From contig JBHHZW010000002.1 of NCBI GenBank assembly GCA_046758305.1, positions 1 through 34,489 on the forward strand: a stretch of DNA of 34,489 nt, given 5' to 3'. The position numbers and the translations under genes were made by a program. This document shows positions 4,913 through 28,265 of the stretch, piece after piece. Below the pieces are notes generated by a model, which did no database searches, was not told the origin of the DNA, and was given only the letters and a program-made list of their open reading frames with translations. Source of the DNA: Bacteroidota bacterium (lineage in GTDB: Bacteria; Bacteroidota; Ignavibacteria; UBA10030; JAZGDE01). Position 1 is the stretch's first letter, and every line of letters begins with the position of its first letter.

Positions 4913-7315
4913 CTATGATTGCACCATTCTCCCGCCCAGGCTGCCGAATGATGCCAGTGCGAGCACGTAGGAAAGGCCTGCGACCACCAGAACGCCTACA
5001 AAGCCCTGGTTGATGGCGATGAAGGTCGCGAGAATCACACTCGCGACAGAGGCACAGCCGTTGATTCCCCAGGCCCATGGTACCAGCGCAGGGTTCGCTC
5101 TAGAAAGCCTTTCGAGTCCCAGCGGAAACAACAAGCCCATGAGATACGCAGGCGGTGAAAGCAGCAGGATGGCAGTAGTGAACCGAAGGAGAATCGGCAG
5201 TTTTGAAAAGAACTTCAGAATGACCGGTGAACCGAAGAGATACAGAGTTGTAAAACCCACGACACTGATCACTGCAATCGTCAGAATTGCTGGAAACCGT
5301 GATGCAAGTCGGTGAGAAAAATAACTCCCGAGGCCTGAGAACACTAACATCCCTGCAACAACCACCGCAACAGCATAGATTGGATGACCCACGAGAAGGA
5401 TGAATTTTTGTATCATGACCACTTCGACGAACATGTACCCTACTCCGATCCCTCCGAAGTAGAACAGCGTGGGCCCGATCCTTTTGTTGACGGTCCCGCT
5501 ACCTCGCAGGAAAAACAGCGGAACGAGGATAAGTAAGAGGCTAAGAATAACCAGCTGGACCAGCGTGGCAACGAGAATCACATATCCCCACTCAAAAAAA
5601 GGCAGCCCTGATGTACCGTAGATCTCTCTCAAGTACGGAAGACTTTTCCATTTGAAAAAGTGTGAGAAGTAGGGACGATTGTCTCCTGCCGGAGCGATGA
5701 AGAACTGATAGTCACGAAGGAAGTCTTCTCTCGTCTCCGACAGGAGAAGATCTGAAGCATTCTCCAAGATCGACTCTTCGAGCTGATGGAAGCGGTTGAC
5801 CTCCTCAGGCCGAATTCCCGGGACGTACACCAGGTCGAAAAAATTATCTTCGCAGAATCCACGAATTGCCTCGATCTCCTCCTCGTTGAACGGCGATCGT
5901 TTCGCCAACAACGTTACGGTGCCCCAGCTTCGAATCACCGCGACCTGCTGTTCCAAACGATGACTCCGCAGTTCTCGCAAAGCTTCGTGGATCGTTGCAA
6001 GAATCTTCAGTGAACTTCGCGGCGGATAGTTCATCCAGGTGGTTATGCTGAGGATGCCGTCTTCCCGGAGATGATCGATCATCTCGCGGAACGAATCGAC
6101 CGTGAAGAGATAGTTTTCAAAGAGGGCCTGCATTCCAGCTGCAGAAGCGGTGAAACCCTCGAGGATCGGAAGGACAATGAGGTCGAAACGATGCTGCGAA
6201 CCTGCAAGAAACGTGCGCGCTTCTTCGACCCGGAGAAGAACGTTCTTTCTCTCGTAGAGGAAATCTGTCCGATCGGGAGCGACAGCCCTGAGCAACTCGA
6301 CAAGCTGACTGTTCATCTCCACGGCGGTAACGGAGCGAGCACTATGGCCCAACGCAAGATAGACGTCGCTTCCCGTGCCGGCCCCGAGAACGAGCACCTG
6401 CGGTTCAGTTTTTAATCTGTAAGGTAGTGCAGAGGTCGTCCGCTCGAGAAACTGAGCCGCGGAAGTGTCCCGGTGGTCGATGATTGTTCCAACCCATTCC
6501 CCGTCCGCAAACACCCCGAGCTGACTTGGTATGCGGCCGCCGTAGGAGAGACTCAACCCGGGAGCGTAACGGAGGGCGGGACTTTCAAGCGCCGTCACAA
6601 TGCCGAGCGGGCCACGCCGTTCTCCGACAATTTTCGCCTGTGGAAGTAGCAGCGCTTTCGACAGGCTCTTGTATTGCGACATGACGGGAGTTACAGGATG
6701 CCACCAGTCTAATAAGAAAATGAGTCCAAGAAGAGCGATAGAGGCGGTGAGTGCACGCCGCGGCTGGTCCAGGAGAAACACAGCCAGCGCAAAAACACAA
6801 AACGCTGCGGTAATTAGCGGCACAGTTAACGGATGGACGACGTACGCCAACGGAATCGCTCCAACAGCCCCCAGCCCGGATCCAAGGAGGTTGGCAAAAT
6901 AGAGCTTTCCGATCTGTTCCGGTCGCTTCATAAACGTGAGTCCAATGACAAACGCGCCAAACAGAAAGGGGAGGAACAGAACAACATAAAAGTAAAGCAG
7001 ATTCCAGACTTCAGAAAATTTCCAGACGATCCGATAAGGATCAAAACAGACGATGCCCAGAAGTGTCATCGAGAGTATCATGAAGAGCGAGCACAGGATG
7101 AGCGCAAAAGCGACCGCCATCTCAAATCGACGGATGAAGTGCGACCGGAACAGGAAGAGGAGCGTACCGCTTGCCCCAAAGCCGAGCAACGCAACGCTGA
7201 TGATCATGTACGCGAAGTGATACCACTGCAGGTAGGAGAGGACTCTCATGAGAGAGACCTCGAACGCAAGGAGTGCAAAGGAAAGAATACCGAGGGTCCA
7301 GGCTGGTCGGTCCAT
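4913..7315 (-). CDS. Polytopic membrane protein with a central spermidine-synthase-like (class I SAM-dependent transferase fold) domain
   Basis: About 800 aa with many hydrophobic helices at both ends. The central soluble part has VLVLGAGTGSDVYLALGHSARSVTAVEMNSQLVELLR and FDLIVLP, like SpeE or methyltransferase motifs I and post-I. The ATG at 7315-7313 overlaps the pcm stop by 1 nt (TGATG). The ORF-track start at 7318 is a GTG one codon upstream. Confidence 0.7.
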   Translation of the reverse strand: MDRPAWTLGILSFALLAFEVSLMRVLSYLQWYHFAYMIISVALLGFGASGTLLFLFRSHFIRRFEMAVAFALILCSLFMILSMTLLGIVCFDPYRIVWKFSEVWNLLYFYVVLFLPFLFGAFVIGLTFMKRPEQIGKLYFANLLGSGLGAVGAIPLAYVVHPLTVPLITAAFCVFALAVFLLDQPRRALTASIALLGLIFLLDWWHPVTPVMSQYKSLSKALLLPQAKIVGERRGPLGIVTALESPALRYAPGLSLSYGGRIPSQLGVFADGEWVGTIIDHRDTSAAQFLERTTSALPYRLKTEPQVLVLGAGTGSDVYLALGHSARSVTAVEMNSQLVELLRAVAPDRTDFLYERKNVLLRVEEARTFLAGSQHRFDLIVLPILEGFTASAAGMQALFENYLFTVDSFREMIDHLREDGILSITTWMNYPPRSSLKILATIHEALRELRSHRLEQQVAVIRSWGTVTLLAKRSPFNEEEIEAIRGFCEDNFFDLVYVPGIRPEEVNRFHQLEESILENASDLLLSETREDFLRDYQFFIAPAGDNRPYFSHFFKWKSLPYLREIYGTSGLPFFEWGYVILVATLVQLVILSLLLILVPLFFLRGSGTVNKRIGPTLFYFGGIGVGYMFVEVVMIQKFILLVGHPIYAVAVVVAGMLVFSGLGSYFSHRLASRFPAILTIAVISVVGFTTLYLFGSPVILKFFSKLPILLRFTTAILLLSPPAYLMGLLFPLGLERLSRANPALVPWAWGINGCASVASVILATFIAINQGFVGVLVVAGLSYVLALASFGSLGGRMVQS

Positions 7316-8076
7316 CACTGTCTGCGCTGAAGAGGGACGAATCGTACCGGCAGCAGGCTGCGAGAGGTTATTTTGCCGTTCTGCTTCTCGACCAGCATCA
7401 GTGTTTGAACAAGGAATGGATGTCCGACAGGAATGACCATTCTACCGCCGTCTTTCAGCTGCTCGATGAGTGGCGGAGGAATGTGTTCGGCTGCTGCCGT
7501 GACGACAATCGCGTCGTACGGCGCATGCTCTGTCCAGCCGTAATAACCGTCCGCGATCTTCACCGAGACATTTTCGAAGCCCAAACTTTGCAGTCGCATT
7601 TTGGCTGCCTCGCCAAGCGGCTCGATGATTTCAATCGTGAACACGGAATCGACGATCTCAGCAAGGATGGCCGCTTGGTATCCGGATCCCGTGCCGACCT
7701 CCAAAGCTTTGCTCCGATCTGAAACTTCAACAAGCTCAGTCATGTACGCGACGATGTACGGCTGGGAGATCGTCTGCCCGTATCCGATCGGAACGGGATG
7801 ATCTTCGTATGCCTCATCGATCGAAGAGCGCGGCACAAATTGGTGGCGCGCCACCTCCCGCATCGCGTTGAGCACGTGCTCATCTTTGACCCCACGCAAT
7901 CGGATCTGTCGCTCGACCATCTGATGGCGCAGACGATCGAATTCTGACGCCTGTTGGGATGAAAAGGAATGAACAAACGCAGCAACAGCGGGATCGTAGA
8001 CAGGACTGCTGTGATCTTGGACAACGACGACCGCAAGGATGAAAATGAATATCCAGAGGGGAATAAAAGGTTTCAT
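7315..8076 (-). CDS. pcm: Protein-L-isoaspartate O-methyltransferase with an N-terminal hydrophobic signal or anchor segment
   Basis: Hallmark GQTISQPYIVAYMTELV and ALEVGTGSGYQAAILAEIV motifs. The N-terminus MKPFIPLWIFIFILAVVVVQD is strongly hydrophobic. Confidence 0.9.
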   Translation of the reverse strand: MKPFIPLWIFIFILAVVVVQDHSSPVYDPAVAAFVHSFSSQQASEFDRLRHQMVERQIRLRGVKDEHVLNAMREVARHQFVPRSSIDEAYEDHPVPIGYGQTISQPYIVAYMTELVEVSDRSKALEVGTGSGYQAAILAEIVDSVFTIEIIEPLGEAAKMRLQSLGFENVSVKIADGYYGWTEHAPYDAIVVTAAAEHIPPPLIEQLKDGGRMVIPVGHPFLVQTLMLVEKQNGKITSRSLLPVRFVPLQRRQ

Positions 8077-9281: not shown

Positions 9282-9640
9282 GCATGCCACCTGCTTTCGA
9301 TCTTGTCATATTGAGCAAATGAACCGTGATCTCTTCGCTAAAGTAGCAGATTGCACGCCGAATAGCAAGGAAGGTGCCAGTGCTGACTTCTAGAAAATCC
9401 AGTCTCTCGAGGAGAGAGACCGTGCTTTCAAGGGTTGGACCTATGCTGGCGAACGGGACTTCTCATATGCATCTGGACGGTTTCTTCTCGTCACCTTAAC
9501 CGCGAACCGCAAACAACATCCGCTAGGTCTGACATCCCACGCCTGCGGCCATCATTTCGGGCCTTTCGCCCTTATTTTACCAGGCCTCAAGAGCCCTGGG
9601 ATCCGCCCCGACGCACAAGAAAAACCTTAAATAAAAACAC

Positions 9641-9669
9641 TTGACAAAACATTTCCGATTATGTATATT
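9641..9669 (+). promoter_or_regulatory. Sigma70-type promoter for the abrB-like/arsM cassette
   Basis: TTGACA (9641-9646), 17-nt spacer, TATATT (9664-9669). Confidence 0.6.
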
Positions 9670-9679
9670 ATTCAGTAGA

Positions 9680-9695
9680 TTCTGATTAATCAGAA
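9680..9695. promoter_or_regulatory. Perfect 16-bp palindrome, candidate operator just downstream of the predicted transcription start
   Basis: TTCTGATTAATCAGAA equals its own reverse complement. It starts 11 nt after the -10 hexamer and lies about 45 nt upstream of the ATG at 9740. Confidence 0.5.
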
Positions 9696-9739
9696 AAGGG
9701 CAAATATCCCGAATAACATCTCTCCCGGAGGTTACGAAC

Positions 9740-10015
9740 ATGGCCAAGAAAGGTACAGATCGACGTCGTCCTGTTAGGGCGGCAAGGGGACTTGGTTGCT
9801 GTAAAGTAGAATCAGTAATCACCGTCGATGATCGGGGACAGATGGTGCTTCCCAAAGAGATAAGAGAGACCGCAAAAATCCGCCCTGGTGATAAGCTAGC
9901 TGTGATCGGTTGGGAGAAGGATGGTAAGGTATGCTGTATTTCTCTCATTAAGGTTGAAGACCTTACAGAAATGGTAAAAGATATGCTCGGGCCAGTGATG
10001 AAAGGTATCCTTTGA
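9740..10015 (+). CDS. SpoVT/AbrB-fold DNA-binding protein carrying two vicinal cysteine pairs
   Basis: 91 aa with GGAGG 8 nt upstream. The core VITVDDRGQMVLPKEIRETAKIRPGDKLAV matches the swapped-hairpin AbrB/MazE signature. Cys20-Cys21 and Cys65-Cys66 flank that core. Confidence 0.75.
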   Translation: MAKKGTDRRRPVRAARGLGCCKVESVITVDDRGQMVLPKEIRETAKIRPGDKLAVIGWEKDGKVCCISLIKVEDLTEMVKDMLGPVMKGIL

Positions 10016-10033
10016 AACAATGAGGAGGTTGAA

Positions 10034-10867
10034 ATGAAGGAACAAGAGATCAAAAAAGCCGTAAGAGAAGGCTATGCAAGAATAGCGGAAACGGGCAACT
10101 CTTGCTGTGCTCCTAAGAGCTCCTGCTGTGAGAGCTCGGACCTTGGAGAGGATATTACCAGGAGGATCGGATATACGGATGAGGAGCTGAAATCTGTTCC
10201 CGAGGGGGCAAACCTCGGACTCGGTTGTGGAAATCCTACCGCTCTGGCATCGTTACGAGAAGGGGAAACTGTTCTCGACCTCGGGGCAGGGGGCGGTTTC
10301 GATTGTTTCCTCGCCTCCAACAAGGTCGGAAAGAAGGGAAAAGTCATCGGTGTGGATATGACGGTGGAGATGGTCGCGAAAGCCAGAGAAAACGCACGAA
10401 AGGGCAGTTACGAAAATGTAGAATTTCGGTTGGGAGAGATTGAAAACATACCGCTCGCCGATCATTCCGTTGATGTGGTCATCTCGAACTGCGTCATCAA
10501 CCTTTCCCCTGACAAGACAAGAGTCTTCCAAGAAGCATTCAGGGTTCTTAAACCTCAAGGAAAGCTGATGGTATCTGACATTGTCCTGATGAAAGAGCTT
10601 CCCAATTTCATACGAGACTCCCTCGACGCATATGTTGGGTGCATCTCAGGGGCAATGCTAAAGGACCACTATGTCGGAGCGATAAGAAAAGCGGGCTTCC
10701 ATGAGATCAAAATACTCGATGAGAAACCATTTCCAGCTGGGTCAAGCGTCAACGATCCAACTCTCCAGAGGATCCTCGAGAGCCTGAACATACCGACGGA
10801 GGAGGTGGAAAGGAACCTTCGATCCGTTGTTAGCATAACGGTCACCGCAGAAAAAGGAAGAGGGTAA
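10034..10867 (+). CDS. arsM: Arsenite S-adenosylmethionine methyltransferase
   Basis: 277 aa with GAGGAGG upstream. SAM motif VLDLGAGGGFD. ArsM-typical cysteine contexts are all present: N-terminal CC pairs (SCCAPKSSCCE), LGCGNP, ISNCVINL and YVGCISGA. Confidence 0.85.
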   Translation: MKEQEIKKAVREGYARIAETGNSCCAPKSSCCESSDLGEDITRRIGYTDEELKSVPEGANLGLGCGNPTALASLREGETVLDLGAGGGFDCFLASNKVGKKGKVIGVDMTVEMVAKARENARKGSYENVEFRLGEIENIPLADHSVDVVISNCVINLSPDKTRVFQEAFRVLKPQGKLMVSDIVLMKELPNFIRDSLDAYVGCISGAMLKDHYVGAIRKAGFHEIKILDEKPFPAGSSVNDPTLQRILESLNIPTEEVERNLRSVVSITVTAEKGRG

Positions 10868-11235
10868 CCTGAAGAATTCCATAAGACTCACTGCAGACGG
10901 TTTTTTCTCCGATTCAACAGCTTCTCCAAACTAATAATTTACATTAAATAAGCTGAACATGTTGTGCTGTTCTACACAGAAAGTCAATCTATTTTATCAC
11001 TGTGTCGTGCTTCGTATATCGTTGAGGCAACGATCTAATGAAATGCGTAATTTAAGAGTACTTCAAACGCTCACCCATCTGGAAAGAAAGATCCATTGCA
11101 TCAAAATGAAAAAAGGATCACTCTGACGTCTCTCGAACAACCGGATGTCGATCACGATTCCATTTCCTCCTACCTCCCATGACGCTCAGGCTGTGAAACC
11201 TCTTCCCAACTGTGGGGTTGAAGAGCTCTCCGTAT

Positions 11236-12393: not shown

Positions 12394-14463
12394 ATGTTTC
12401 ATCACCCGACCGGTCCGAAGACCACGCGTTTTGCACTGTGCGCGATCACTATCGCTACCCTGATATCGACGGAGAGTTTTGCGCAGAATGCTTCGAAGTC
12501 CATCAGCGAGGGAACCATGCAAAATGTCACGAGCGAACTCATCAGCCGCTTTGGAACGTCTCAAGCAAGCCGAATCGAGAAAGGAGTCCGACAGGTTACA
12601 CGACTGTGGCGCCCTGAAGACGGCAGCGAGGAAAACTTCATACAGTTCTGCCGCGACAATTTCGTTGCAGACCCTGACCTGCTCCAGAAAACGTTCGACC
12701 GATTACAAGAGAACCTGATACTCGTCTATGGATACATGCTGGAATTAAAGCGCGACATCGACAGACCCCTTGACCTCGACCTCGGACCCATTCTCCCCAT
12801 CGATTATCTGTTCGGAGAGTTCTCACCATCAGCTCACCTGAGCGAGGATCTTTTCAAATCGAAGATCGCGTTCATCGTCCTCCTGAACTTCCCGCTCTAC
12901 ACCCTCGAAGAGCGCCTTACCCTCGCTCCGTCGTGGACTCGTCAGGAGTGGGCGGAAACAAGACTGGCGCAAATTTTCTCCACCCGCGTTCCGGCGTCGG
13001 TGAAGCAAAAAGTAACGCAGGCATACACCAAAGCGGACAATTATATCAACTCGTACAACATCTTCATGCACAATGTGCTCACGGAGAACGGCGAGCGGTT
13101 GTTCCCTGAAGGATTGAAACTCATCAGTCACTGGGGGTTGCGGGATGAGCTCAAGGCTCAGTACGCTAACAAGGACGGACTCCCACGCCAGGAGATGATT
13201 CAACTCATCATGGAGAGAATCATCACTCAACAAATCCCCTCAGTCGTCATTAATAACCCGGACGTGGATTGGAATCCAAGTTCGAACATCGTCACGTTGA
13301 GGTCAGGAAGCACGCGTACGAGCGAACGCGAGCCTGACCGCCGCTACACGATGTGGCAGAATACCTTCAAGGCGGAACGCGAGATCGACGCTTACGATCT
13401 GGACGCGCCAACAAAAATCGACCGACGATTCCAGCGCGATCGTGAGATTCCGGAAGCAAAAGTCGAGCAGCTACTGGGGTCAGTTCTCGGCTCCCCGGTC
13501 GTCAAACAAGTTGCCGCAATCATCAAAAAGCGCCTCGGCAGGGAACTCCGACCGTTTGACATCTGGTACAACGGATTCAAGCCTCGTGGAGCGTACACGG
13601 AACAGGAACTCGACCGCATCGTGGCCTCGCGCTATACGACCATCCCCTCGTTTCAAGCGGACATAGCCAACATTTTGAAGAAACTCGGCTTTTCAGGGGA
13701 AAAGAGCCAATTTCTCGCAGCAAAAATTGCCGTAGACCCTGCCCGCGGGGCTGGACACGCTTATCGACCAGGAAGACTCGTCGACAAAGCGCACCTCCGA
13801 ACGCGGATCCCGCAAAGCGGGATGAACTACAAAGGGTACAACATCGCCATCCATGAGCTCGGTCACAACGTGGAGCAGGTGATCTCCTTCAACATGATCG
13901 ATTACACTCTCCTGCGCGGTGTCCCGAACACAGCGTTCACGGAGGGCTTCGCGTTCGTTTTCCAATCGCGCGACCTTGAAATTCTGGGGGTCGGAAAAGA
14001 AGAGCAACACGCAGAGCACCTCAAAGCACTCGACGTACTATGGTCCACCTACGAAATCGGCGGCGTTGCCCTCGTCGACATGAAGGCATGGCGCTGGCTG
14101 TATGAACACCCCGACGCAACTCCTGCAGAGATGCGTGAGGCAGTTATCGCGATTGCAAAGGATGTCTGGAACGACTATTTCGCCCCCGTCCTCGGAGTCC
14201 GCGACGTTCTCCTCCTCGCCGTCTACTCGCACATGGTGGATGGAGGAATGTACACTCCGGATTATCCCCTTGGCCATATCATCGCATTCCAGATCGAAGA
14301 GCATATGAAGAAATACAGCCTGGCGGAAGAAATGGAAAGGATGTGCATGATTGGATCCATCACACCAGACCTGTGGATGGAGCAGGCTGTGGGCTCTTCT
14401 ATTTCAACGAAGCCGCTGCTGGAAGCAGCAGAGAGAGCAGTTGCTGTGCTGAAAGGCAAGTAA
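12394..14463 (+). CDS. Exported gluzincin metallopeptidase (M3/oligoendopeptidase-like)
   Basis: 689 aa with GGAGG 6 nt upstream and a signal peptide (FALCAITIATLISTESFAQ). HELGH zinc motif, with a Glu 26 residues after the second His (NTAFTEGFAF), as in gluzincins. Confidence 0.65.
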   Translation: MFHHPTGPKTTRFALCAITIATLISTESFAQNASKSISEGTMQNVTSELISRFGTSQASRIEKGVRQVTRLWRPEDGSEENFIQFCRDNFVADPDLLQKTFDRLQENLILVYGYMLELKRDIDRPLDLDLGPILPIDYLFGEFSPSAHLSEDLFKSKIAFIVLLNFPLYTLEERLTLAPSWTRQEWAETRLAQIFSTRVPASVKQKVTQAYTKADNYINSYNIFMHNVLTENGERLFPEGLKLISHWGLRDELKAQYANKDGLPRQEMIQLIMERIITQQIPSVVINNPDVDWNPSSNIVTLRSGSTRTSEREPDRRYTMWQNTFKAEREIDAYDLDAPTKIDRRFQRDREIPEAKVEQLLGSVLGSPVVKQVAAIIKKRLGRELRPFDIWYNGFKPRGAYTEQELDRIVASRYTTIPSFQADIANILKKLGFSGEKSQFLAAKIAVDPARGAGHAYRPGRLVDKAHLRTRIPQSGMNYKGYNIAIHELGHNVEQVISFNMIDYTLLRGVPNTAFTEGFAFVFQSRDLEILGVGKEEQHAEHLKALDVLWSTYEIGGVALVDMKAWRWLYEHPDATPAEMREAVIAIAKDVWNDYFAPVLGVRDVLLLAVYSHMVDGGMYTPDYPLGHIIAFQIEEHMKKYSLAEEMERMCMIGSITPDLWMEQAVGSSISTKPLLEAAERAVAVLKGK

Positions 14464-14874: not shown

Positions 14875-15147
14875 CCGTTACGCCCAACAGCGAGCCCGCC
14901 CTTTCCAAGATGCTGGAGATCAACGCGGCTCAAGTGCGTAGCTCAAGGGACAGAACTACAAAGCTCATTCAGTATTGGACAAGCTTGAAGCGGCGCTCAG
15001 CAGCGCAGCTGAGACCGGACAATGGAACCCTCGTTTCCGAACGCAGCGTCTCTGTGCAAGTTCATACCCCACCTCGTCGGTTTCATCCGACTGAGGATCA
15101 CCTCACCCGCAGGTATTGGTTTTGTGCGTGAGCTCGAACCGTTCACG

Positions 15148-16083
15148 ATGCTCTGGCTCTTACCGTCCCTTCTTGTTCTCCATGCCAGTGTAATCCGCAC
15201 GAACGCACAACTCGTAGACGCGGACAAGCTGCCCCGCAACCTGCGGCAGTTTGTCCAAGCAGACTATAGCCTCACCTACGCGCGTGAAGATACTGTGCAG
15301 GTAGACGAGGCCACTGCTACCATCGATTTCCTGCTTCGTGGAATAAATGACCGAACCGTTCGGGGGCGCCTGCGCATCCCACGGGTGGGCAGTCCACCGT
15401 ATCCGCTCGCCTATCTTACGGTCGGTTTGGAGACCGGCAAGAACGTCGTCGGCATGATCGAAGGTTACGACAGTGTCATCGTGGCGGCGATTGATTATCC
15501 ATTTGATCCATTGCTCGATTTCTCCGGTCTGGGCGGGTTTCTCAAGCTGTTCAGGGCCCGCAAAAGCGCGGCGGAGAGCATCTATTCAAGCCTGTTGTGC
15601 CTGCAGTGGTTGCTTGAGAAACCGATTGTCGACACGCGGAACGTGTCGATGATCGCGGTCAGCTTCGGCGTCTTCACGGCCGTCCCCGTCGCAGTCATCG
15701 AGCAGCGATTTTCCCGATTGGTCGTTATCGAAGCAGGTGGTAACCTCGGGCGGATCATCAAAACAAACGCGAAAAAATCTGGCACCTTCGTGCCCTCCTG
15801 GTTTGCCGGATGGCTGGGCGGACTCGTGCTGAGCCGCTACGATCCGATTAATTACATTGACGACTTCGCCCCAAGACCCGTGCTCATCGTCGGCAGCGCC
15901 GCCGATGAATTTTTTCCCAAGGAATCGATCGAATCTCTCTACGACGCAGCAAGGAAGCCAAAGGAAATCATCTGGCACGAACGGGCCCACGTCATGCCAT
16001 ACCAGCAGGACCGCATCCGCGAACTCACACGCCTCGTCGCCCAAAAACTGTACGGAAACACACCGACTGGTTCACATGAATAA
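15148..16083 (+). CDS. Alpha/beta hydrolase (dienelactone hydrolase / S9-like), probably exported
   Basis: Nucleophile-elbow-like AVSFG and a C-terminal His context (WHERAHV). I prefer the ATG at 15148 (MLWLLPSLLVLHASVIRTNAQ is signal-like) over 15022. No clear SD for either start. Confidence 0.6.
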   Translation: MLWLLPSLLVLHASVIRTNAQLVDADKLPRNLRQFVQADYSLTYAREDTVQVDEATATIDFLLRGINDRTVRGRLRIPRVGSPPYPLAYLTVGLETGKNVVGMIEGYDSVIVAAIDYPFDPLLDFSGLGGFLKLFRARKSAAESIYSSLLCLQWLLEKPIVDTRNVSMIAVSFGVFTAVPVAVIEQRFSRLVVIEAGGNLGRIIKTNAKKSGTFVPSWFAGWLGGLVLSRYDPINYIDDFAPRPVLIVGSAADEFFPKESIESLYDAARKPKEIIWHERAHVMPYQQDRIRELTRLVAQKLYGNTPTGSHE

Positions 16084-17218
16084 TCTATCGCCTCGAGAGC
16101 TCGAGCGGTTGATCTTCACCGTGTTTGCTCCAACAGAGGCCGACCGTACACTCTTGATCCTTGTCGATGTTCCGAACGCCGCCGCTCCGGACAACGCCGC
16201 CTGGAGAGACCGACGGATGATAGCACACGAGTGGCACCGCGCTCTCACGAGCGTTCGGTACCAACTTGGATTCCAGAACCTCAAAACTCTCTACTACGAG
16301 AACGTCGAAAGTAACAACGCAGACCTGCCAGAACTTTGCTATGAGTACGATGCGTCTTGCGAGGAACTGCATGCCGAAAAACTCGCAACATCCGGCAGGT
16401 CGTGCCCCCTCAACGCTGTGCTCGCGCAAACTGATATTGTCATCGCTCCAACCGAGTTCTCCGCTACAGCGCCGCTTAAACTCCTCGCGAGGCAGTATGG
16501 GTTTCGCGCTGCGACCTTGCCCGGTTTTTCCCGGGAGATGATCTCAGCTCTGGGTTTGGACTACGTCAAGATCCACGAGCGCGTGATGTTCTTCAAACAG
16601 AGACTGGACGATGCCGTCGGCATCAAGGTGGTCTTGAGTGATGGAAGCAGGGAGTATGCATCGTCCTTTGACCTTCGTTTCCGCACGGCGCATGCAAGCA
16701 GTGGACTCATCCGTGAGCGCGGCACGGCAGGAAATCTTCCGTCCGGAGAAGCCTACATTGTCCCAAACGAAGGGGAAAAGGAACAAAGCCAAAGCGAGGG
16801 GCTGCTGCCTGTTCAGTTCGGAGAGGAAGTCGTTGTGTTCAAGATCGAGCAGAATCGTGCGATCGACGTTCTCAGCAAGGGGTCACAATCAGAAAACCAG
16901 CTTCGGATGCTTCAAGAGGAGCCTGCCTACGGCAACATTGCTGAAGTCGGAATCGGCGTGCTTGGTGCGTTCGGGGTAACTGCAGTCGGGAATACGTTGC
17001 TGGACGAGAAACTCGGGCTGCACATCGCCTTCGGTCGCAGCGATCATTTCAGTGGAATTACCGGCCCGAGCACTTTCAAGAATCCGAAGCGAGTTGTGCA
17101 CATTGATTGGGTGTATGTTCCGTCAGTTCAGCCGAAGATTCAAGTGCGGGAGGTAAGGCTTATCTATAGTGGGAAGGCAGACGAGGTGACCATGAAGAAC
17201 GGGAAGTTTCTGGTCTGA
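16076..17218 (+). CDS. M29 (aminopeptidase T/S)-like protein
   Basis: The C-terminal region GNIAEVGIGV...NTLLDEKLGLHIAFGRS resembles the M29 signature (E-x-GIG...LFDEK-x-G-x-HIALG). The ATG at 16076 overlaps the upstream stop (ATGAATAA). The ORF-track start at 15857 lies inside the upstream gene. Confidence 0.5.
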   Translation: MNNLSPRELERLIFTVFAPTEADRTLLILVDVPNAAAPDNAAWRDRRMIAHEWHRALTSVRYQLGFQNLKTLYYENVESNNADLPELCYEYDASCEELHAEKLATSGRSCPLNAVLAQTDIVIAPTEFSATAPLKLLARQYGFRAATLPGFSREMISALGLDYVKIHERVMFFKQRLDDAVGIKVVLSDGSREYASSFDLRFRTAHASSGLIRERGTAGNLPSGEAYIVPNEGEKEQSQSEGLLPVQFGEEVVVFKIEQNRAIDVLSKGSQSENQLRMLQEEPAYGNIAEVGIGVLGAFGVTAVGNTLLDEKLGLHIAFGRSDHFSGITGPSTFKNPKRVVHIDWVYVPSVQPKIQVREVRLIYSGKADEVTMKNGKFLV

Positions 17219-17306: not shown

Positions 17307-18236
17307 CTACGAAAACTTTCCTTCGATCGCCGCACGCACAAATCCCTGAGACTTTCTCAGTCGCTTTTCTGCCTCTGCCGCTGACACACCAGCCCGGATC
17401 ATCACCAGAGCTTTTTTCACATGGCCGCCTGCCCCCTGCAGGACGCGCGCGGCCTCTTCATACGATACGCCTGTTATCATCATCACGACAGCTTTTGCAC
17501 GCTCCTCGAGTTTGCGGCTGTTCATCTGCAGGTCGATCATCATGTTCTCGTACACCTTGCCGAGCTTAATCATCGCCGTCGTCGTGATCATATTGAGAAC
17601 CAGCTTCTGTGCCGTCCCCGACTTCATCCGCGTCGATCCCATGATCACCTCAGGTCCGACCTCCGGGCATATAGCCACATCCACGAAATCGTAATTGAAC
17701 TCCGATCGAGGGTTCGTCGTGATGAAGATCGTTCTCGCCCCGAGCCCCTTCGCACGCCTCACAGCTGCCACAACGTACGGCGTCCTCCGACTGGCCGCAA
17801 CTCCACAGACTACATCCTTCGAGGTCACGTTTCGACCTTCAAGATCTCGCACACCGGAACCTTCATCATCCTCAGCTCCCTCCTGTGCCTGGAACACCGC
17901 CCTCTCCCCTCCGGCAATAATCCCCTGGATCATCTCCAGATCGGTCCCGAAGGTCGGAGGACACTCAGCCGCATCCACAATTGCCAGTCGACCGCTTGTT
18001 CCGACGCCGACGTACAGCAGCCTTCCACCATTCTGAAAACTTTCCACCACCAGGTCGACCCCTTTTGCGATGTAAGGAATTTCCGATTCAACAGCCATCG
18101 CCACCTTCGTGTCCTCGCTATTGATGATGGTCAGGATCTCCCGGACCGATTGCGCATCGATGTCCATAGACGCTGGATTACGCTGCTCGGTCGCAAGCTT
18201 CTTCAATTCCTCGAAAAGCTCTGATCGTTCTTTCAT
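17307..18236 (-). CDS. murQ: N-acetylmuramic acid 6-phosphate etherase
   Basis: SIS-domain motifs GVGTSGRLAIVDAAECPPTFG and STRMKSGTAQK, with typical length and N-terminus (LATEQRNP). Confidence 0.9.
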   Translation of the reverse strand: MKERSELFEELKKLATEQRNPASMDIDAQSVREILTIINSEDTKVAMAVESEIPYIAKGVDLVVESFQNGGRLLYVGVGTSGRLAIVDAAECPPTFGTDLEMIQGIIAGGERAVFQAQEGAEDDEGSGVRDLEGRNVTSKDVVCGVAASRRTPYVVAAVRRAKGLGARTIFITTNPRSEFNYDFVDVAICPEVGPEVIMGSTRMKSGTAQKLVLNMITTTAMIKLGKVYENMMIDLQMNSRKLEERAKAVVMMITGVSYEEAARVLQGAGGHVKKALVMIRAGVSAAEAEKRLRKSQGFVRAAIEGKFS

Positions 18237-18244
18237 ACTGTGAC

Positions 18245-18967
18245 TCAGCTCAGCGGCACAATGACCAGCTGCTTGTCGTTCGCTTCCATTGTTTCACTTC
18301 CTTCAAACACGATTGGGACCACCGTGATCGATCGCACCGACTTCATCTTGCGTATGACCTGGAATTCTCGTTCGAGCTCACCGCCTTTCCATGCAATCAG
18401 CGAACCTACCGGCACGCGAAAGCGATGGCCGGTACTCAGCTGTGGTCCTCGACTGGCGGACTCACCATACTTCCTCAGAAACGGCGCACTCCATTTCACT
18501 AGATCCTTGAGTCGTCCCACTGCCCGGCATAGCACGTAATCATACGATGAATGAAACTGGTTTTTCTTCCCCAGATCTTCTGCGCGGCCGCAAACGACCT
18601 GCACTTCACTCAACGAGAGCTTCAGGACGATATTGCCCAGAGCAACGGTTTTCTTCTTGATGGAGTCAAGGCAAGTTAACTGAAGACTCTCAAGTACGAT
18701 CTTGATCGGAATGCCTGGCAGTCCACCACCCGCACCGAGGTCAAGCACGCTGGCGGTGGGCGAAAGGTCGAGCTTGAACAGCGCCGCAAGTGAGTGGAGG
18801 ATGTGTCGCTCCCAGATGTTTGGTTCATCTCTCCGTGAAATCAGATTGATTCTCTTATTCCAGTCGAGAAGAAGTTCTACGTATTTCCGGATGAATGTAA
18901 GCTTGTCATCTGAGATCATCAATCCGTTCTTCTGGCAAACAGTTCGGAACCAGACCAACTTATCCAT
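18245..18967 (-). CDS. rsmG: 16S rRNA (guanine527-N7)-methyltransferase
   Basis: WNKRINLIS...HILHSL and LDLGAGGGLPGIPIKI motifs. Sits immediately downstream of mnmG. Confidence 0.9.
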   Translation of the reverse strand: MDKLVWFRTVCQKNGLMISDDKLTFIRKYVELLLDWNKRINLISRRDEPNIWERHILHSLAALFKLDLSPTASVLDLGAGGGLPGIPIKIVLESLQLTCLDSIKKKTVALGNIVLKLSLSEVQVVCGRAEDLGKKNQFHSSYDYVLCRAVGRLKDLVKWSAPFLRKYGESASRGPQLSTGHRFRVPVGSLIAWKGGELEREFQVIRKMKSVRSITVVPIVFEGSETMEANDKQLVIVPLS

Positions 18968-19032
18968 TGCTGCTGATGATCTAAACTGCTGTTTTCATTG
19001 AACTTAATTGGTATTTTTTCACGTGAAACATC

Positions 19033-20934
19033 TCATCCTTTCAGATACACCATCACGATGGAGACATCGGCAGGCGTAACGCCGCTGATGCGGGAAGCCT
19101 GGCCGATCGATCGTGGGCGGACGCGATTGAGCTTTTCTCTTCCTTCGGTGGAGAGCGACTTCACCCGATTGAAATCAAAATTCTCCGGAATGTCGATCGA
19201 CTCGTACCTTTCGAAGCGCTCGATTTGCTCCACCTGCCGTGTAATGTAGCCATCGTACTTCAACTCGATTTCGAGCTGCCTCAAGACATCGCCGCAATCA
19301 AGGCACTTCGCCACAAAGGGCTCTGAGCGCAGGGATTCCTGCCTCAGGAGTTCTTCAACTGTCACGTCCGGACGCTTGATCAAATTGGCCAATTTTTCGT
19401 TTTCCGTCAGCGGGGTGGATCCCACCGACTCCAGATAGACGTTCACGTCGTCGGGACGGATCGAGAAAGACTCTGCAAATCTTATACCTTCCTCCACCAA
19501 CTGTTCTTTCTCTTTGAGTGCTGAATAGACATCATCCGGGATGAGTCCAAACGCCTTTCCGTACTTCATCAAGCGCCGGTCGGCGTTATCCTGCCGCAGG
19601 AGGAGCCTGTATTCAGCCCTCGAGGTGAACATACGATAGGGCTCATCCGTGCTCTTGTTGACGAGGTCGTCGATTAGGACACCGATATAGGCCTGAGACC
19701 GCTTGAGGACAAAGGGCGGTTCACCTTTTACCCTTAGAGCGGCGTTAATACCTGCGACTATGCCTTGACCTGCTGCCTCTTCATATCCGGAGGTACCATT
19801 GATCTGGCCGGCAAAGAAGAGGCCTTCCAAGAGCTTCGTCTCCAGAGTCAGTTCGACCTGATGGGGTGGGAAAAAGTCATACTCCACCGCGTATCCTGGT
19901 CTCAGCATTTTGACGTTTTCTAAGCCAGGAATCGTCTTCAGACCCTCAAACTGGATGTCTTCCGGAAGGCTCGTCGAGAACCCGTTGACATAGACCACGT
20001 TTGTAGTGTATCCCTCCGGTTCGAGGAATATCTGGTGGCGCTCCTTGTCCGCAAAACGCACGATCTTGTCCTCAATGGACGGGCAGTACCGCGGACCGCG
20101 ACCTTTAATAAGGCCGGTGAACATAGGGGACCGGTCAAATCCTTTTCGGAGGATATCGTGGGTCACGCCGTTCGTGTGTGTCAGGTACATCGAGATCTGC
20201 CTTTGGCCGATCTCGGTAGACTGGTGGGAAAATGGCTCGGGCGGGTCATCCGAGTGCTGCTCTTCGACCTTGGTGAGGTCAATGCTATCGATATTAACCC
20301 TTGGCGGGGTTCCAGTCTTCAGTCTACCGCTCACAAAGCCGAACTTCTCGAGACATTCGGTCAGGCCACCGGAGGCCGGCTCTCCGTATCTTCCGCCGGC
20401 ACTACTTTTCAATCCCGTGTGCATCAGTGCACGCAGGAAGGTCCCCGCGCAAATAATGAGCGCTTTACATCGGACAAATGCGCCTTTCGAGGTTTTCACC
20501 CCGGTTAGCTTTCGCCGCCCTGGGACACCGTCAGATTCGCCGTAGATTTCAACAACAGCATCTTCCAGTATCGTAAGGCCTTCCTGTGATTCGACACGCA
20601 TTCTTGCCTGATCGGCGTACCACTGACGGTCATTCTGACACCGTGGTGACCATACTGCCGGACCCTTCGATTTATTCAGCATTCGGAAGTGGATGCCAGT
20701 GGCATCGGCGATTTTCCCCATTTCTCCGCCCAGTGCGTCGACCTCGCGAACCAGGTGCCCTTTCGCGGTCCCTCCGATGGCCGGATTGCACGACATTCTC
20801 CCTATGGCCTTCTTGTCCATCGTCATCAGGAGGGTGCTGCAGCCCATTCGCGCCGTCGCCAGACAGGCTTCAATGCCAGCATGCCCACCACCGAGTACGA
20901 CTACATCATAGTATGCATGGTTATTTGATTCCAT
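19033..20934 (-). CDS. mnmG: tRNA uridine 5-carboxymethylaminomethyl modification enzyme
   Basis: 633 aa with the N-terminal FAD motif [15 protein letters not shown] and GidA-family motifs throughout ([27 protein letters not shown]). Confidence 0.95.
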
Positions 20935-20984
20935 ACACGTCGAAAGCGAGTTTCACGTGAAACCTCGGTGTTATGTAAACTTAC

Positions 20985-22385
20985 TTACTTCCCGATGCAG
21001 AATTTTGAAAAGATCGAGTTCAAAATGTCCTCTGTAGTCACTGTCCCTACGATTTCACCGAGAAAATCGAGAGCAGACCGTAGGTCTACTGCAACAAACT
21101 CCCCACTCTGTCCCTCTTCGATCGATCGAAGGGCCAGCCTGAGATGATCTCTAGCTTTCTCGAGCGCTTGCTTATGCCGGCTGTTCGTGACCGTGACGGT
21201 CCCCTCAGAGCTGTCGGTTCTGCCGACAAGAGCTAGATTGACGAACTCCCGGCGAACATCGTCGAGACCCATTCCTCTGAGAGCTGAGATTTTCACTCGT
21301 GGATATCGGCTGAGGAACTGCAATGCCCCGTCGGACTGGCCGTTCGAGACCAGATCCATTTTGTTTTGAACAACCAAGCAACCTGTTTGTTTGCTGTCGA
21401 TCTTGCCCAGAATTCGCTCAATGAGTACACGGTCAGGTTCGCCGACAGGCTGTGAGGCATCGAATACCAACACGAGAATGTCGCAGCTCAAGATCTGATT
21501 TTCTGACCGCCTTACCCCTTCCTGTTCAACGATATCGACCGTTTCCCGAAGGCCGGCGGTATCGACAACCCGAAACAAAACTCCCTCAATATTGAGGCTT
21601 TCCTCGATCACATCACGGGTCGTCCCTGGTATCTCCGTCACGATAGCGCGGTTCTCGTCGAGCAGTGCGTTCAGAAGGCTTGATTTTCCTACGTTTGTGT
21701 TACCGGAGAGCACCACTTTGATGCCCTCGCGGCACAGCTTCCCAAATGAGTAGGAGCGAACCAAGAGGTCGATCTGCGCAATAACGGAGGACAGCCTCCG
21801 CGCGAGCTTCGGCTTATCCATGAACTCGATGTCCTCCTCGACGAAATCCAGCTCTAACTCCAACAGTCCGCACATTTCGATCAGTTCGCTCCGGACCACG
21901 TTGATTCTTTCTGATAACTTTCCCTCAAGCTGGTGCAGGGATGATCGATGCGCCAAGTCGGTGCGCGCCCGAATGAGATCTGCAACCGCCTCTGCTTGGG
22001 ACAGGTCAATGCGACCGTTCAAGAATGCACGCTTGGTGAACTCCCCCGGTTCAGCAAGCCGCCCGCCATTTGCAATAACAGCATCCAAGACCGTCCGCGT
22101 AATCCATGGCCCACCGTGACAGCTTAGCTCCACCACGTCCTCTGCCGTGTAGGAATGCGGTCCTCGAAACACCACCGCGACCACCTCGTCCACCACCTCG
22201 CCCGACTGGTCGATGATATACCCGAAATGCGCTGTGTGCGTCCGCGCCTCGGAAAGTCGCACCTTACCCCGAAATCCGCGATCGGCGACCTCGAGCGCAC
22301 GCTTGCCGCTCAGACGAATCACCGAAATCCCGCCTTCGCCGATCGGCGTCGCGATCGCAGCAATGACATCATCCTGTGATTTCAT
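20985..22385 (-). CDS. mnmE: tRNA modification GTPase
   Basis: DVIAAIATPIGEGGISVIRLSG N-terminus, G-domain GNTNVGKSSLLN and the C-terminal FCIGK. I prefer the ATG at 22385, which has GGAGG 9 nt upstream. The ORF-track start at 22463 adds an implausible 26 aa. Confidence 0.9.
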   Translation of the reverse strand: MKSQDDVIAAIATPIGEGGISVIRLSGKRALEVADRGFRGKVRLSEARTHTAHFGYIIDQSGEVVDEVVAVVFRGPHSYTAEDVVELSCHGGPWITRTVLDAVIANGGRLAEPGEFTKRAFLNGRIDLSQAEAVADLIRARTDLAHRSSLHQLEGKLSERINVVRSELIEMCGLLELELDFVEEDIEFMDKPKLARRLSSVIAQIDLLVRSYSFGKLCREGIKVVLSGNTNVGKSSLLNALLDENRAIVTEIPGTTRDVIEESLNIEGVLFRVVDTAGLRETVDIVEQEGVRRSENQILSCDILVLVFDASQPVGEPDRVLIERILGKIDSKQTGCLVVQNKMDLVSNGQSDGALQFLSRYPRVKISALRGMGLDDVRREFVNLALVGRTDSSEGTVTVTNSRHKQALEKARDHLRLALRSIEEGQSGEFVAVDLRSALDFLGEIVGTVTTEDILNSIFSKFCIGK

Positions 22386-22422
22386 CGCACCCATCCTCCC
22401 GATTGAACAAACAACACAAAAA

Positions 22423-22451
22423 AATCTATCAAAAAAACGCGCGAAAATCAA
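22423..22451 (-). promoter_or_regulatory. Candidate sigma70-type promoter for mnmE
   Basis: On the minus strand: TTGATT (22451-22446), 17-nt spacer, TAGATT (22428-22423). Confidence 0.35.
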
Positions 22452-22551
22452 ACCTCCGCGCACACCTGACGTATACGTATTCGATCACGGCAAGAGGACA
22501 TCCCGCCCTGAATCCTAGACCCCGGGGAGTAAACTCTTCTCAAATTAGCAC

Positions 22552-22580
22552 TTGACAAAAAACATCGTATGTATTATATT
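22552..22580 (+). promoter_or_regulatory. Sigma70-type promoter for arsR-family gene; predicts a leaderless transcript
   Basis: TTGACA (22552-22557), 17-nt spacer, TATATT (22575-22580). The ATG begins 8 nt after the last -10 base, and no SD intervenes. Confidence 0.55.
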
Positions 22581-22595
22581 TAACCATATGGTTAA
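22580..22595. promoter_or_regulatory. Perfect 16-bp palindrome centred on the arsR-family start codon (candidate auto-operator)
   Basis: TTAACCATATGGTTAA equals its own reverse complement. The ATG at 22588-22590 lies at its centre. Confidence 0.5.
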
Positions 22596-22932
22596 CTATT
22601 CTTCAGGCTCTCTCAACGCAACGTTCTCAGCTCTTGCCGACCCAACGCGCCGCGCAATCCTGGCACGACTCGCACGCGGCGAGACCTCAGTGACGAAACT
22701 GGCGAAACCGTTCGATGTGTCCCTCCCCGCCATCTCCAAACACCTGCATGTATTGGAAAACGCAGGACTGATTCGCCGCCAGAAAAAAGGCCGCGTCCAC
22801 CGCTGCCGGTTCGTAGGAGAACCGATGAAAGACGCTGCAATTTGGATTGAACGCTATCGACGTTTCTGGGAAGGTCAATTCGAGGCTCTTGCTGAGTATC
22901 TAGACAAATCCAACGAAAAGGAGAAACCCTGA
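22588..22932 (+). CDS. ArsR/SmtB-family winged-helix transcriptional regulator (no obvious metal-binding Cys motif)
   Basis: ALADPTRRAILARLARGETSVTKLAKPFDVSLPAISKHLHVLENAGLI is the canonical ArsR HTH region. The ORF-track start at 22552 is the TTG of the -35 box, so I prefer the ATG at 22588. Confidence 0.85.
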   Translation: MVNYSSGSLNATFSALADPTRRAILARLARGETSVTKLAKPFDVSLPAISKHLHVLENAGLIRRQKKGRVHRCRFVGEPMKDAAIWIERYRRFWEGQFEALAEYLDKSNEKEKP

Positions 22933-23390
22933 TGACCAAGGCGAATGCTAAAATAGAAACCAGTCTCCAGCTCAAGCGGACCTTCGCAGCGCCGCGGGAG
23001 AGACTATTCCGTGCATGGACAGAGCCCGCAGCATTGAAAAAATGGTTCGCTCCGACAGACGAGTATTCTATGCCCATCGCCCAGGTGGACTTGAGGATCG
23101 GGGGAAATTATCGTTTCGGCATGAAGCCACCTAACACGGATGTTCCCCACGTTGCGTTCGGCACGTTCCGTGAAATCCGAGTCCCGGAGAAGCTCGTATT
23201 CACATGGTCTTGGGAAAATCCGGACTCGAACATCGGAGAAACGCTTGTCACCGTTGAATTCCGCGATTTGGGAGGTTCCACCGAGATCATTCTTACACAT
23301 GATCTCTTCCCTGACGAAAAATCACGTGATGACCACAACAAAGGTTGGACTGGATGCCTCGGCCGGCTCGCCAAGTTGGTGTCAACTTAA
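22932..23390 (+). CDS. SRPBCC-superfamily (Aha1/AHSA1-like) protein
   Basis: 152 aa with R-x-F-x-AP-x-E-x-(L/V)-(F/W)-x-A-W-T-(D/E)-P and a C-terminal GW-x-x-x-L-x-x-L pattern typical of the family. ATGA overlap with the arsR stop; this pairing with ArsR regulators is common. Confidence 0.75.
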   Translation: MTKANAKIETSLQLKRTFAAPRERLFRAWTEPAALKKWFAPTDEYSMPIAQVDLRIGGNYRFGMKPPNTDVPHVAFGTFREIRVPEKLVFTWSWENPDSNIGETLVTVEFRDLGGSTEIILTHDLFPDEKSRDDHNKGWTGCLGRLAKLVST

Positions 23391-28004: not shown

Positions 28005-28265
28005 GGACAGGATGCTAGTCAGTTCGCGAGCAACGTACCTTACTTATAAGTAAGAGGCCGGCGTGCTTCCTTAAACTTAGCACAAAGGTTTGCGAAGACG
28101 AAGTGGCTAATTTTGCTTAGATAAAGGGTTCGCAACCATTGCGTTCGCTTTGGTAATACTGAGGATTGCGATGCGCGATTTGGATCTCCTATTGACCTAT
28201 TCAAGGCGGGATTGACGCTTGGAGGCTTAGTAATAAGAGCTGGATAATTCTGAGCGCCCGCTTTT

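Follow-up and report, generated by a model that had tools for sequence, protein, structure and literature searches.

An HgcC-family protein of AbrB fold and a TCWGA pentamer array at an arsM promoter: a candidate metal(loid)-responsive switch in Bacteria and Archaea

The window analysed here is a stretch of 34,489 nucleotides (nt) from a Bacteroidota bacterium of the class Ignavibacteria (assembly GCA_046758305.1, contig JBHHZW010000002.1, positions 1 to 34,489). It contains an operon of two genes, the first encoding a small protein of 91 amino acids (aa) and the second the arsenite methyltransferase ArsM (Table 1). The ArsM product reaches 359.7 bits against NF008823 (arsenite methyltransferase; cut-off 263) and aligns to the Chlamydomonas ArsM structure 5EVJ in PDB (E=4e-33), and its residues C65 (GCGNP), C153 (SNCVINL) and C203 (GC(I/L)(S/A)GA) align with cysteines of solved ArsM structures. 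It also carries two N-terminal Cys-Cys (CC) pairs, at 24/25 and 31/32. These two pairs, a near-consensus promoter (TTGACA-17-TATATT, which matches the consensus at 11 of 12 positions) and arsM as the downstream gene of the same operon had been described in an earlier reading of the DNA (the original prediction), and all three are confirmed, but the gap between the genes is 18 nt and not 19. We compared this cassette with its relatives in other genomes and in metagenomes. The comparison supports the fold family, the operon linkage, the operator with its position and the conservation of the cysteines, and on such sequence grounds the cassette is a strong candidate for a metal(loid)-responsive switch of a new type.

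Table 1. Features of the hgcC-arsM cassette (bp, base pairs; ORF, open reading frame; L082, a syntenic relative of the window).
Feature	Position	Strand	Remarks
-35 hexamer TTGACA	9641..9646	+	kept in syntenic relative L082
-10 hexamer TATATT	9664..9669	+	17-nt spacer from -35; identical in L082
Operator pentamer 1, TCAGT	9672..9676		one mismatch to TCWGA; 9 bp 5' of pentamer 2
Perfect 16-bp palindrome TTCTGATTAATCAGAA	9680..9695		about +4 to +20
Operator pentamer 2, TCTGA	9681..9685		within TTCTGATTAATCAGAA; TTAA between pentamers 2 and 3
Operator pentamer 3, TCAGA	9690..9694		within TTCTGATTAATCAGAA
Decayed operator pentamer 4, CCCGA	9708..9712		18 bp (two registers) 3' of pentamer 3, after aaagggcaaatat
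Ribosome-binding site GGAGG of the small ORF	9727..9731	+	ATG 8 nt further on
hgcC-family gene	9740..10015	+	91 aa; AbrB/SpoVT fold; C20 C21 and C65 C66
Ribosome-binding site GAGGAGG of arsM	10022..10028	+	inside the 18-nt intergenic gap
arsM	10034..10867	+	As(III) S-adenosylmethionine methyltransferase, 277 aa

By sequence, the 91-aa protein belongs to the HgcC family, which forms a specialised branch within the AbrB/SpoVT/MazE superfamily of swapped-hairpin DNA-binding proteins. The protein matches NCBIfam NF040962, "HgcAB-associated protein HgcC", with 122.6 bits (cut-off 70, E=4e-36), and residues 20-88 cover profile positions 1-69 of 70. The cut-offs of TIGR01439 (AbrB looped-hinge helix; 39.4 bits, cut-off 28.3) and PF04014 (30.4 bits, cut-off 24.7) are passed as well, and the alignment profile matches the SpoVT N-domain 2RO5 (E=4e-5) and the Sulfolobus AbrB-family structures 5ITJ and 2L66, which supports the AbrB/SpoVT fold given in the original prediction. 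An AlphaFold2 monomer has residues 1-18 disordered, followed by beta 20-28, helix 39-44, beta 52-60, beta 63-71 and helix 72-90, that is, the beta-alpha-beta-beta order expected of the AbrB/SpoVT/MazE superfamily. With Pfam, no winged helix-turn-helix (PF01022/PF12840) was matched in the 91-aa protein, nor did the ArsD family match HgcC. At the positions that correspond to the loop and helix in contact with DNA (D30, R32, G33, Q34, P38, K39 and R42), conservation among 150 diverse representatives (50% identity clusters) is 89-99%. The NF040962-type family comprises 3123 clusters at 90% identity and 338 representatives at 50% identity (E<=1e-10), with at least 594 matching stretches in the one-genome-per-species GTDB.

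The sensor family had been thought to be new, and this part of the original prediction does not hold, while its mention of AbrB-like proteins beside hgcAB proved correct. McDaniel et al. 2020 (PMC7438021) noted a "putative transcriptional regulator" directly 5' of hgcAB in 112 genomes, which probably belongs to the same family as HgcC, and Zhang et al. 2023 (PMC10349881) proposed as regulator an AbrB/PrlF/MazE-like gene that lies 5' of hgcA, for the most part in Archaea. Both papers are without an operator, a ligand or an experiment, and in the open-access literature we found no paper linking an HgcC-type protein to arsM. Relative to that literature, the family name and the suspected regulator role were already known, and the arsM linkage, the operator and the cysteine pattern, as read from the sequences, appear to be new.

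We then analyzed the neighbours of hgcC. The genome set consisted of the window and the best 80 of at least 594 matching GTDB stretches, giving 81 loci, and is biased towards the window protein; to offset this, a metagenome scan was seeded with an alignment of hgcA-linked members. In the 158 related loci together, arsM is the commonest downstream gene (about 100), with hgcA(B) next (about 33). The gene immediately downstream in the 81 genome loci is arsM in 61 cases, hgcA in 8 and a gene for an HgcA-like corrinoid protein in 2; at 3 loci a small S-adenosylmethionine methyltransferase or a nitroreductase comes first, then arsM and/or hgcA, and 5 loci run into the contig end. Homology clustering of the region from -5 to +6 kb detected ArsM at 64 of the 78 loci covered, HgcA at 14 and HgcB likewise at 14. 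The metagenome scan yielded 35 arsM loci, plus 5 with truncated methyltransferases and 1 whose arsM the ORF caller had missed, and 23 hgcA(+hgcB) loci, along with an ArsP_1 permease and a pair of membrane-protein and DsrE-like genes. The distance from hgcC to the downstream gene ranges from -10 to +50 nt.

The pairing of hgcC and arsM recurs in many bacterial and archaeal phyla. Hosts include Methanoperedens, Bathyarchaeia, Thermoplasmata, Asgard archaea, Aminicenantes and Dehalococcoidia, and further Nitrospirota, Thermodesulfobacteriota, Actinomycetota and Clostridia; in a neighbour-joining tree, arsM-linked and hgcA-linked members are interspersed. Because arsM is at least as common downstream as hgcAB, the name HgcC is too narrow. 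One protein (P0085, locus L008) is named HgcC by NCBI, yet its gene precedes arsM, and the database name covers many genes partnered with arsM. By this gene order, the partner of hgcC is a metal(loid) methylation or export gene. None of about 150 loci has a toxin gene adjoining hgcC, and a toxin-antitoxin reading was rejected on this ground. A tblastn search of HgcC against 72,556 plasmids gave no match and thus no sign of plasmid carriage. In the window itself there is no hgcA or hgcB, the HgcA cap-helix motif is absent from all ORFs, and no CdhD domain was found in the 20 larger ORFs scanned with Pfam.

Several neighbourhoods differ from these two common arrangements. At some loci (L154:670-1599; L122:1473-2363; L085, L087-L089) an HgcC gene with this operator stands before a gene other than arsM or hgcA: one is followed by an ArsP_1 permease gene (PF03773, 182 bits), and others by genes for a small His/Cys-containing membrane protein and a DsrE/DsrF-like protein. 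The HgcA-like corrinoid proteins with a CdhD domain, at L038:4038-4949 and in L057 (the 376-aa ORF after hgcC), have the cap-helix NVWCAAGEG and not NVWCAAGK. They bear two N-terminal CC pairs (GGCCTPP...VPCCGGG), resembling the N-terminus of ArsM.

The original prediction took the perfect 16-bp palindrome TTCTGATTAATCAGAA as the operator. The palindrome is real and conserved, but the conserved unit is an array of TCWGA pentamers in a 9-bp register. We compared the 160 nt upstream of the homologous genes (11.8 kb in total) with the rest of the same 706 kb, which reaches 6 kb to each side. In the 11.8 kb upstream the dyad TCWGA-N4-TCWGA was counted 66 times (5.6 per kb), and in the remaining 706 kb 3 times (0.004 per kb), an enrichment of about 1300-fold; the three dyads outside hgcC promoters have G/C in their spacers and were judged to be chance matches. 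Successive pentamers lie 9 bp apart in 69 cases, 18 bp in 36, 27 bp in 2 and 36 bp in 2, with almost no other distances, whereas the distances outside the promoters are distributed flatly. The 4-nt spacer of the dyad is entirely A/T in 64 of 69 cases. TCWGA is self-complementary except for its centre base, and the pentamers stand in inverted (34), direct (27) or everted (8) orientation. This mixture excludes an RNA hairpin, and the unit is therefore the pentamer and not the palindrome.

In 74 of 78 loci a scoring matrix derived from the sites gave a value above the highest one in 320 background windows, and in the metagenome scan the dyad was present with at most one mismatch at 37 of 41 arsM-linked, 22 of 23 hgcA-linked and 7 of 7 other loci. 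The tCAGt equivalent of pentamer 1 occurs in most bacterial and archaeal loci. In the window, the palindrome at 9680-9695 is the sole exact TCWGA-N4-TCWGA, although perfect 16-bp palindromes as such number 5 against about 0.5 expected (34489/4^8). A perfect 16-mer alone is accordingly weak evidence, and TTCTGATTAATCAGAA stands above chance because it is conserved. It can be regarded as one case of a family-wide predicted operator, TCWGA in a 9-bp register with A/T spacers.

This arrangement has counterparts among homologous proteins. Chromatin immunoprecipitation of B. subtilis AbrB and Abh (PMC3025583) identified TNCCA-WWWW-TGGNA, with enrichment of palindromic or tandem pairs separated by 4-5 W, which the authors read as binding by a tetramer of two N-domain dimers. 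The N-domain dimer of MazE binds one major groove via a loop arginine (PMC4333400), and the mazEF promoter is described, in work cited there, as having an "alternating palindrome" (Marianovsky 2001). The predicted HgcC site matches the geometry of such AbrB sites exactly.

The position of the array relative to the core promoter was compared in the two domains. Of 45 bacterial loci, 39 have TTGAC[AT] in the 70 nt before the operator, as against 2 of 32 archaeal ones, and in the bacterial homologs a TATAAT-like box abuts the first pentamers or is embedded in them. Among the archaeal loci, 27 of 32 have the TATA-like box aaagTTTAAATAT after the array, and a pentamer (with at most one mismatch) stands at +18 in 25 of these 32 and in 25 of 46 bacterial loci. 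Since the array overlaps the core promoter in both domains, it has the position expected for a repressor.

Further support for the operator comes from L082, a syntenic relative with the same flanking genes and about 77% nucleotide identity (about 74-80%). The alignable block begins at window position 9634, just 5' of the -35 hexamer, and keeps the -35, the -10 and all pentamers (with TCAGG in the position of pentamer 4), while the remaining intergenic region has diverged beyond alignment. The aaagggcaaatat before pentamer 4 is a decayed copy of the archaeal aaagTTTAAATAT block. Bacterial cassettes (window 9696-9712, where it reads aaagggcaaatatCCCGA, and L001, L002, L010, L021 and L029) contain such a aaagTTTAAATAT-TCWGA block, decayed to a varying degree, 3' of the -10. 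The cassette has a GC content of 0.48-0.50 compared with 0.54-0.57 in the left flank, and the window HgcC protein groups with Methanoperedens proteins in the neighbour-joining tree. Taken together, the lower GC, the Methanoperedens-like protein and the decayed archaeal block suggest that the whole promoter-gene unit was transferred between domains long ago.

Downstream of the cassette, L082 and the window differ. Between arsM and the PD40 gene, L082:9214-12146 contains a CMD/AhpD-like gene of 85 aa (CxxC, C-terminal GNCGCG) and a DUF5916 gene, and the window equivalent, 10868-11235, is 368 nt of non-coding DNA only. NCBIfam ArsM/AhpD fusion selenoproteins are among the weaker matches to ArsM.

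Next we considered the cysteines. C20, C21, C65 and C66 are the only cysteines of the 91-aa protein and form the two vicinal pairs noted in the original prediction, and the pairs are conserved; the invariant core, however, is C21 and C66, while C20 and C65 are each dispensable in some lineages. All 148 unique core sequences have C21, and 147 of the 148 have C66. A first pair of CC is found in 89 of 96 proteins linked to arsM but in 17 of 32 linked to hgcA (Fisher p=2.5e-6, a value uncorrected for phylogeny), whereas xC, with the first cysteine lost, accounts for 15 of 32 hgcA-linked and 7 of 96 arsM-linked proteins; this excess of xC could be a clade effect or ligand tuning. The second pair is CC in 88 of 96 arsM-linked and all 32 hgcA-linked proteins. 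The hgcA-linked members have the same cysteines and the same operator as the window protein. Cysteine is missing at both pairs in 1 of 136 distant representatives, and in alignments the generic AbrB, SpoVT and MazE domains have no cysteines at these positions. N-terminal CC pairs occur also in the partner enzymes (ArsM, HgcA and HgcA-like proteins). In the As(III) sites of ArsD, Corynebacterium ArsR and Acidithiobacillus ArsR, a vicinal Cys pair is combined with a third Cys thiolate. The original prediction would have been contradicted by homologs devoid of the cysteines or unlinked to metal(loid) genes, and the bulk of the family is neither.

From these data we propose the following mechanism. 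HgcC is very probably an autoregulated repressor that acts at the TCWGA array. Each homodimer would read one nearly self-complementary TCWGA through the loop and helix residues listed above, and the C-terminal helices (72-90), which in the model could join dimers, would assemble them into tetramers or longer complexes. Such assemblies would occupy pentamers exactly 9 bp apart, at 9672, 9681, 9690 and, weakly, 9708. The array begins 2 nt past the -10 and spans the transcription start, so that RNA polymerase would be excluded; in archaeal relatives the same array would bracket the TATA box. A thiophilic metal(loid) would then bind to C21 and C66 through their thiolates, and C20 and C65 would provide further ligands. 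For arsM-linked proteins this would most likely be As(III) or methylarsenite. Binding would alter the beta1/beta4 region or the dimer-dimer geometry, DNA affinity would fall, and arsM would be derepressed. What we infer here is that one dimer sits on each pentamer, that tetramers form, that the outcome is repression and not activation and, most of all, which ligand binds and what it does; the full chain, in which a repressor tetramer occludes the core promoter and is released on metal(loid) binding to the cysteines, is somewhat favoured on balance.

Several observations weigh against this proposal. First, the cysteines are not universal: the sequence that lacks C66 (L006) lacks C65 as well, and C21 and C66 fall to 78% and 84% among the 150 diverse representatives, so some distant members may act without them, or the alignment may misplace these cysteines. 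An extra CC in the N-terminal tail is found in 42 of 78 relatives, but the window protein has none. Second, the structural support consists of the AlphaFold2 monomer, with a predicted local distance difference test (pLDDT) score of 73.5, and Foldseek against PDB returned no match at E<1; this null carries no information, the query having been a monomer of a fold that is obligately dimeric and interleaved. Third, a Pfam scan of the larger ORFs found no arsenic efflux or reduction genes in the window. The two-gene operon of the original prediction stands, but its "detoxification module" is therefore an assumption, and a classical detoxification role is not evident. Finally, our search of the open-access literature found no experiment on any member of the HgcC family.

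Other explanations accept much of the same evidence. One of them keeps the operator and the repressor but makes the cysteines a thiol redox or sulfide switch, with oxidation or persulfidation of C21 and C66 tying arsM and hgcAB to anoxic, sulfidic conditions. Most hosts are indeed anaerobes (Methanoperedens, Dehalococcoidia, Aminicenantes, Thermodesulfobacteriota), a DsrE/DsrF-like sulfur-relay protein is among the downstream gene types, and nitroreductase genes recur, at 5 loci. We nevertheless consider such a switch unlikely, since arsM, hgcAB and the ArsP permease gene, which dominate downstream, have products that act on As(III)/Hg(II) or export organoarsenicals, and since the cysteine pattern co-varies with As versus Hg genes downstream, which a generic redox switch does not predict.

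An equally unlikely explanation is that HgcC is chiefly a metallochaperone which passes As(III)/Hg(II) to the CC-rich N-termini of ArsM and HgcA, with autoregulation being secondary; sensing would be compatible with this. ArsD offers a precedent, having first been described as a repressor and later as a chaperone for ArsA. Vicinal Cys pairs are shared by HgcC, the N-terminus of ArsM and the N-termini of HgcA and HgcA-like proteins, the flexible tail with its extra CC would fit, and so would the tight translational coupling implied by the short gaps. But the DNA-contact residues are conserved more strongly than the cysteines, the family-wide operator implies strong selection on DNA binding, and the window protein is without the tail pair.

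A ligand-independent autoregulator, of the orphan antitoxin-like or transition-state AbrB type, in which the cysteines are structural (a Zn site or core packing, for example), seems to us quite improbable. The family is indeed called MazE/PrlF antitoxin by Pfam, KEGG and COG, no small-molecule ligand is known for AbrB itself, and a minority of the diverse representatives lack one or both Cys pairs; against this stand the lack of adjoining toxin genes, the metal(loid) enzyme or permease found as neighbour instead, and the cysteine-free generic AbrB, SpoVT and MazE domains. That the palindrome is a chance feature or a hairpin in the 5' leader RNA is hardly credible: the window does contain five such palindromes and the RNA could form a 6-bp stem, but the reading is effectively refuted by the dyad enrichment, by the direct pentamers (27 against 34 inverted), which form no hairpin, by leader folding no better than that of shuffled sequence (z = +0.29), by an Rfam scan of 9300-11100 that gave a sub-threshold snoRNA match only, and by the archaeal site, which lies 5' of the TATA box and is hence untranscribed.

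The proposed metal(loid)-responsive repressor can be set beside four groups of known proteins and the published HgcC. The window protein is of the same family as published HgcC (NF040962) and has the same cysteines and operator as the hgcA-linked members; unlike these, it and most of the sampled relatives precede arsM and not hgcAB. First, ArsR/SmtB proteins are likewise small, Cys-bearing, autoregulated repressors (for HgcC this is proposed), encoded first in the operon with the operator over the promoter, and control arsM or hgcAB, the latter in the ArsR-like hgcAB regulator of Pseudodesulfovibrio mercurii ND132 (Gionfriddo et al. 2023; bioRxiv 10.1101/2022.10.17.512643). They differ in having a winged helix-turn-helix where HgcC has a swapped-hairpin beta domain, and a 12-2-12 type inverted repeat where HgcC has the 9-bp pentamer array. 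The cassette would thus apply the operon logic of ArsR-type metalloid repressors to an AbrB fold.

Second, B. subtilis AbrB/Abh and SpoVT share the homologous N-terminal domain, and AbrB also uses at least two 5-bp motifs with 4-5 A/T between them, palindromic or tandem and bound by a tetramer (PMC3025583). However, AbrB is a global, low-specificity regulator without cysteines or known ligand, whereas HgcC seems to serve a single promoter, whose motif is sharply defined (3 chance matches in 706 kb), has conserved Cys pairs and carries a single C-terminal helix only. Third, MazE/PrlF antitoxins resemble HgcC in the swapped-hairpin fold, in autorepression (again proposed for HgcC) and in overlapping alternative palindromes in the operator, but HgcC has no toxin partner and ends in a short helix, not in a disordered toxin-binding tail. 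Fourth, ArsD is small too, is encoded within arsenic operons and uses vicinal Cys pairs as As(III) ligands. Its fold is thioredoxin-like, in contrast to HgcC, whose DNA-binding residues are the best-conserved part.

For the control of hgcAB and arsM expression in anaerobes, a question of environmental microbiology, an ArsR-like protein from one Pseudodesulfovibrio strain is to our knowledge the only regulator tested. What is gained here is a defined protein family, two invariant cysteines and a sharply defined predicted operator with which any genome or metagenome can be searched. For tests, cultured hosts are available, for example Dethiobacter alkaliphilus, a species represented in our data by L071, a metagenome-assembled genome. 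If ligand sensing holds true, metalloregulators gain a new fold class, and arsenic and mercury methylation share a regulatory logic across both prokaryotic domains. More tentatively, and with some doubt outweighing our confidence, HgcC may be an unrecognised structural class of metal(loid)-sensing transcription factor with an AbrB fold in Bacteria and Archaea, with a common operator grammar for arsM and hgcAB. Its Cys complement (CC..CC with arsM, often xC..CC with hgcA) would tune the ligand, and the cassette would have moved between domains with its promoter, gaining -35 and -10 hexamers while the archaeal TATA-type block decayed.

The rest of the window is outlined here. To the left of the cassette lie genes for M16 peptidases, an epimerase, protein-L-isoaspartate O-methyltransferase (PCMT) and a zinc alcohol dehydrogenase; to the right are a PD40 beta-propeller gene, rsmG, mnmG, mnmE, an ArsR-family/AHSA1 pair, an IS256-type transposase and yidC. 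The genes rsmG, mnmG, mnmE and yidC (17310-22463, 28269-30071), all on the minus strand, form a set typical of origin-proximal regions of bacterial chromosomes, and by its gene content this set confirms the window as a segment of a bacterial chromosome. Four large ORFs, at 4916-7318(-), 12394-14463(+), 15022-16083(+) and 15857-17218(+), have no Pfam match at E<=1e-5; the one among them that encodes an 801-aa membrane protein overlaps the PCMT gene by 4 nt.

The ArsR-family gene at 22552-22929 was also considered as regulator of arsM but was set aside: its distance is 12.5 kb, its partner is an AHSA1-family gene, and it comes with a different palindrome of its own. This pair (22552-23390), an ArsR-family helix-turn-helix gene and an AHSA1/SRPBCC gene, has a TTGACA promoter-like site directly followed by the perfect 16-bp palindrome TTAACCATATGGTTAA (22580-22595), a layout that matches the hgcC cassette though the sequence differs. 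Because TTAACCATATGGTTAA overlaps the TTG start of the longest ORF, the true start of the ArsR-family gene is probably further downstream.

The match of the Mutator/IS256-family transposase at 26709-27906 covers profile positions 113-378 of 379 only, with a 128-aa ORF directly 5', and it is probably a frameshifted copy of an insertion sequence; the perfect palindrome CTTACTTATAAGTAAG (28039-28054) adjoins it. Perfect 16-bp palindromes in coding regions are AGATGATCGATCATCT (6069-6084) and CTTCGATCGATCGAAG (21116-21131), both built on GATCGATC.

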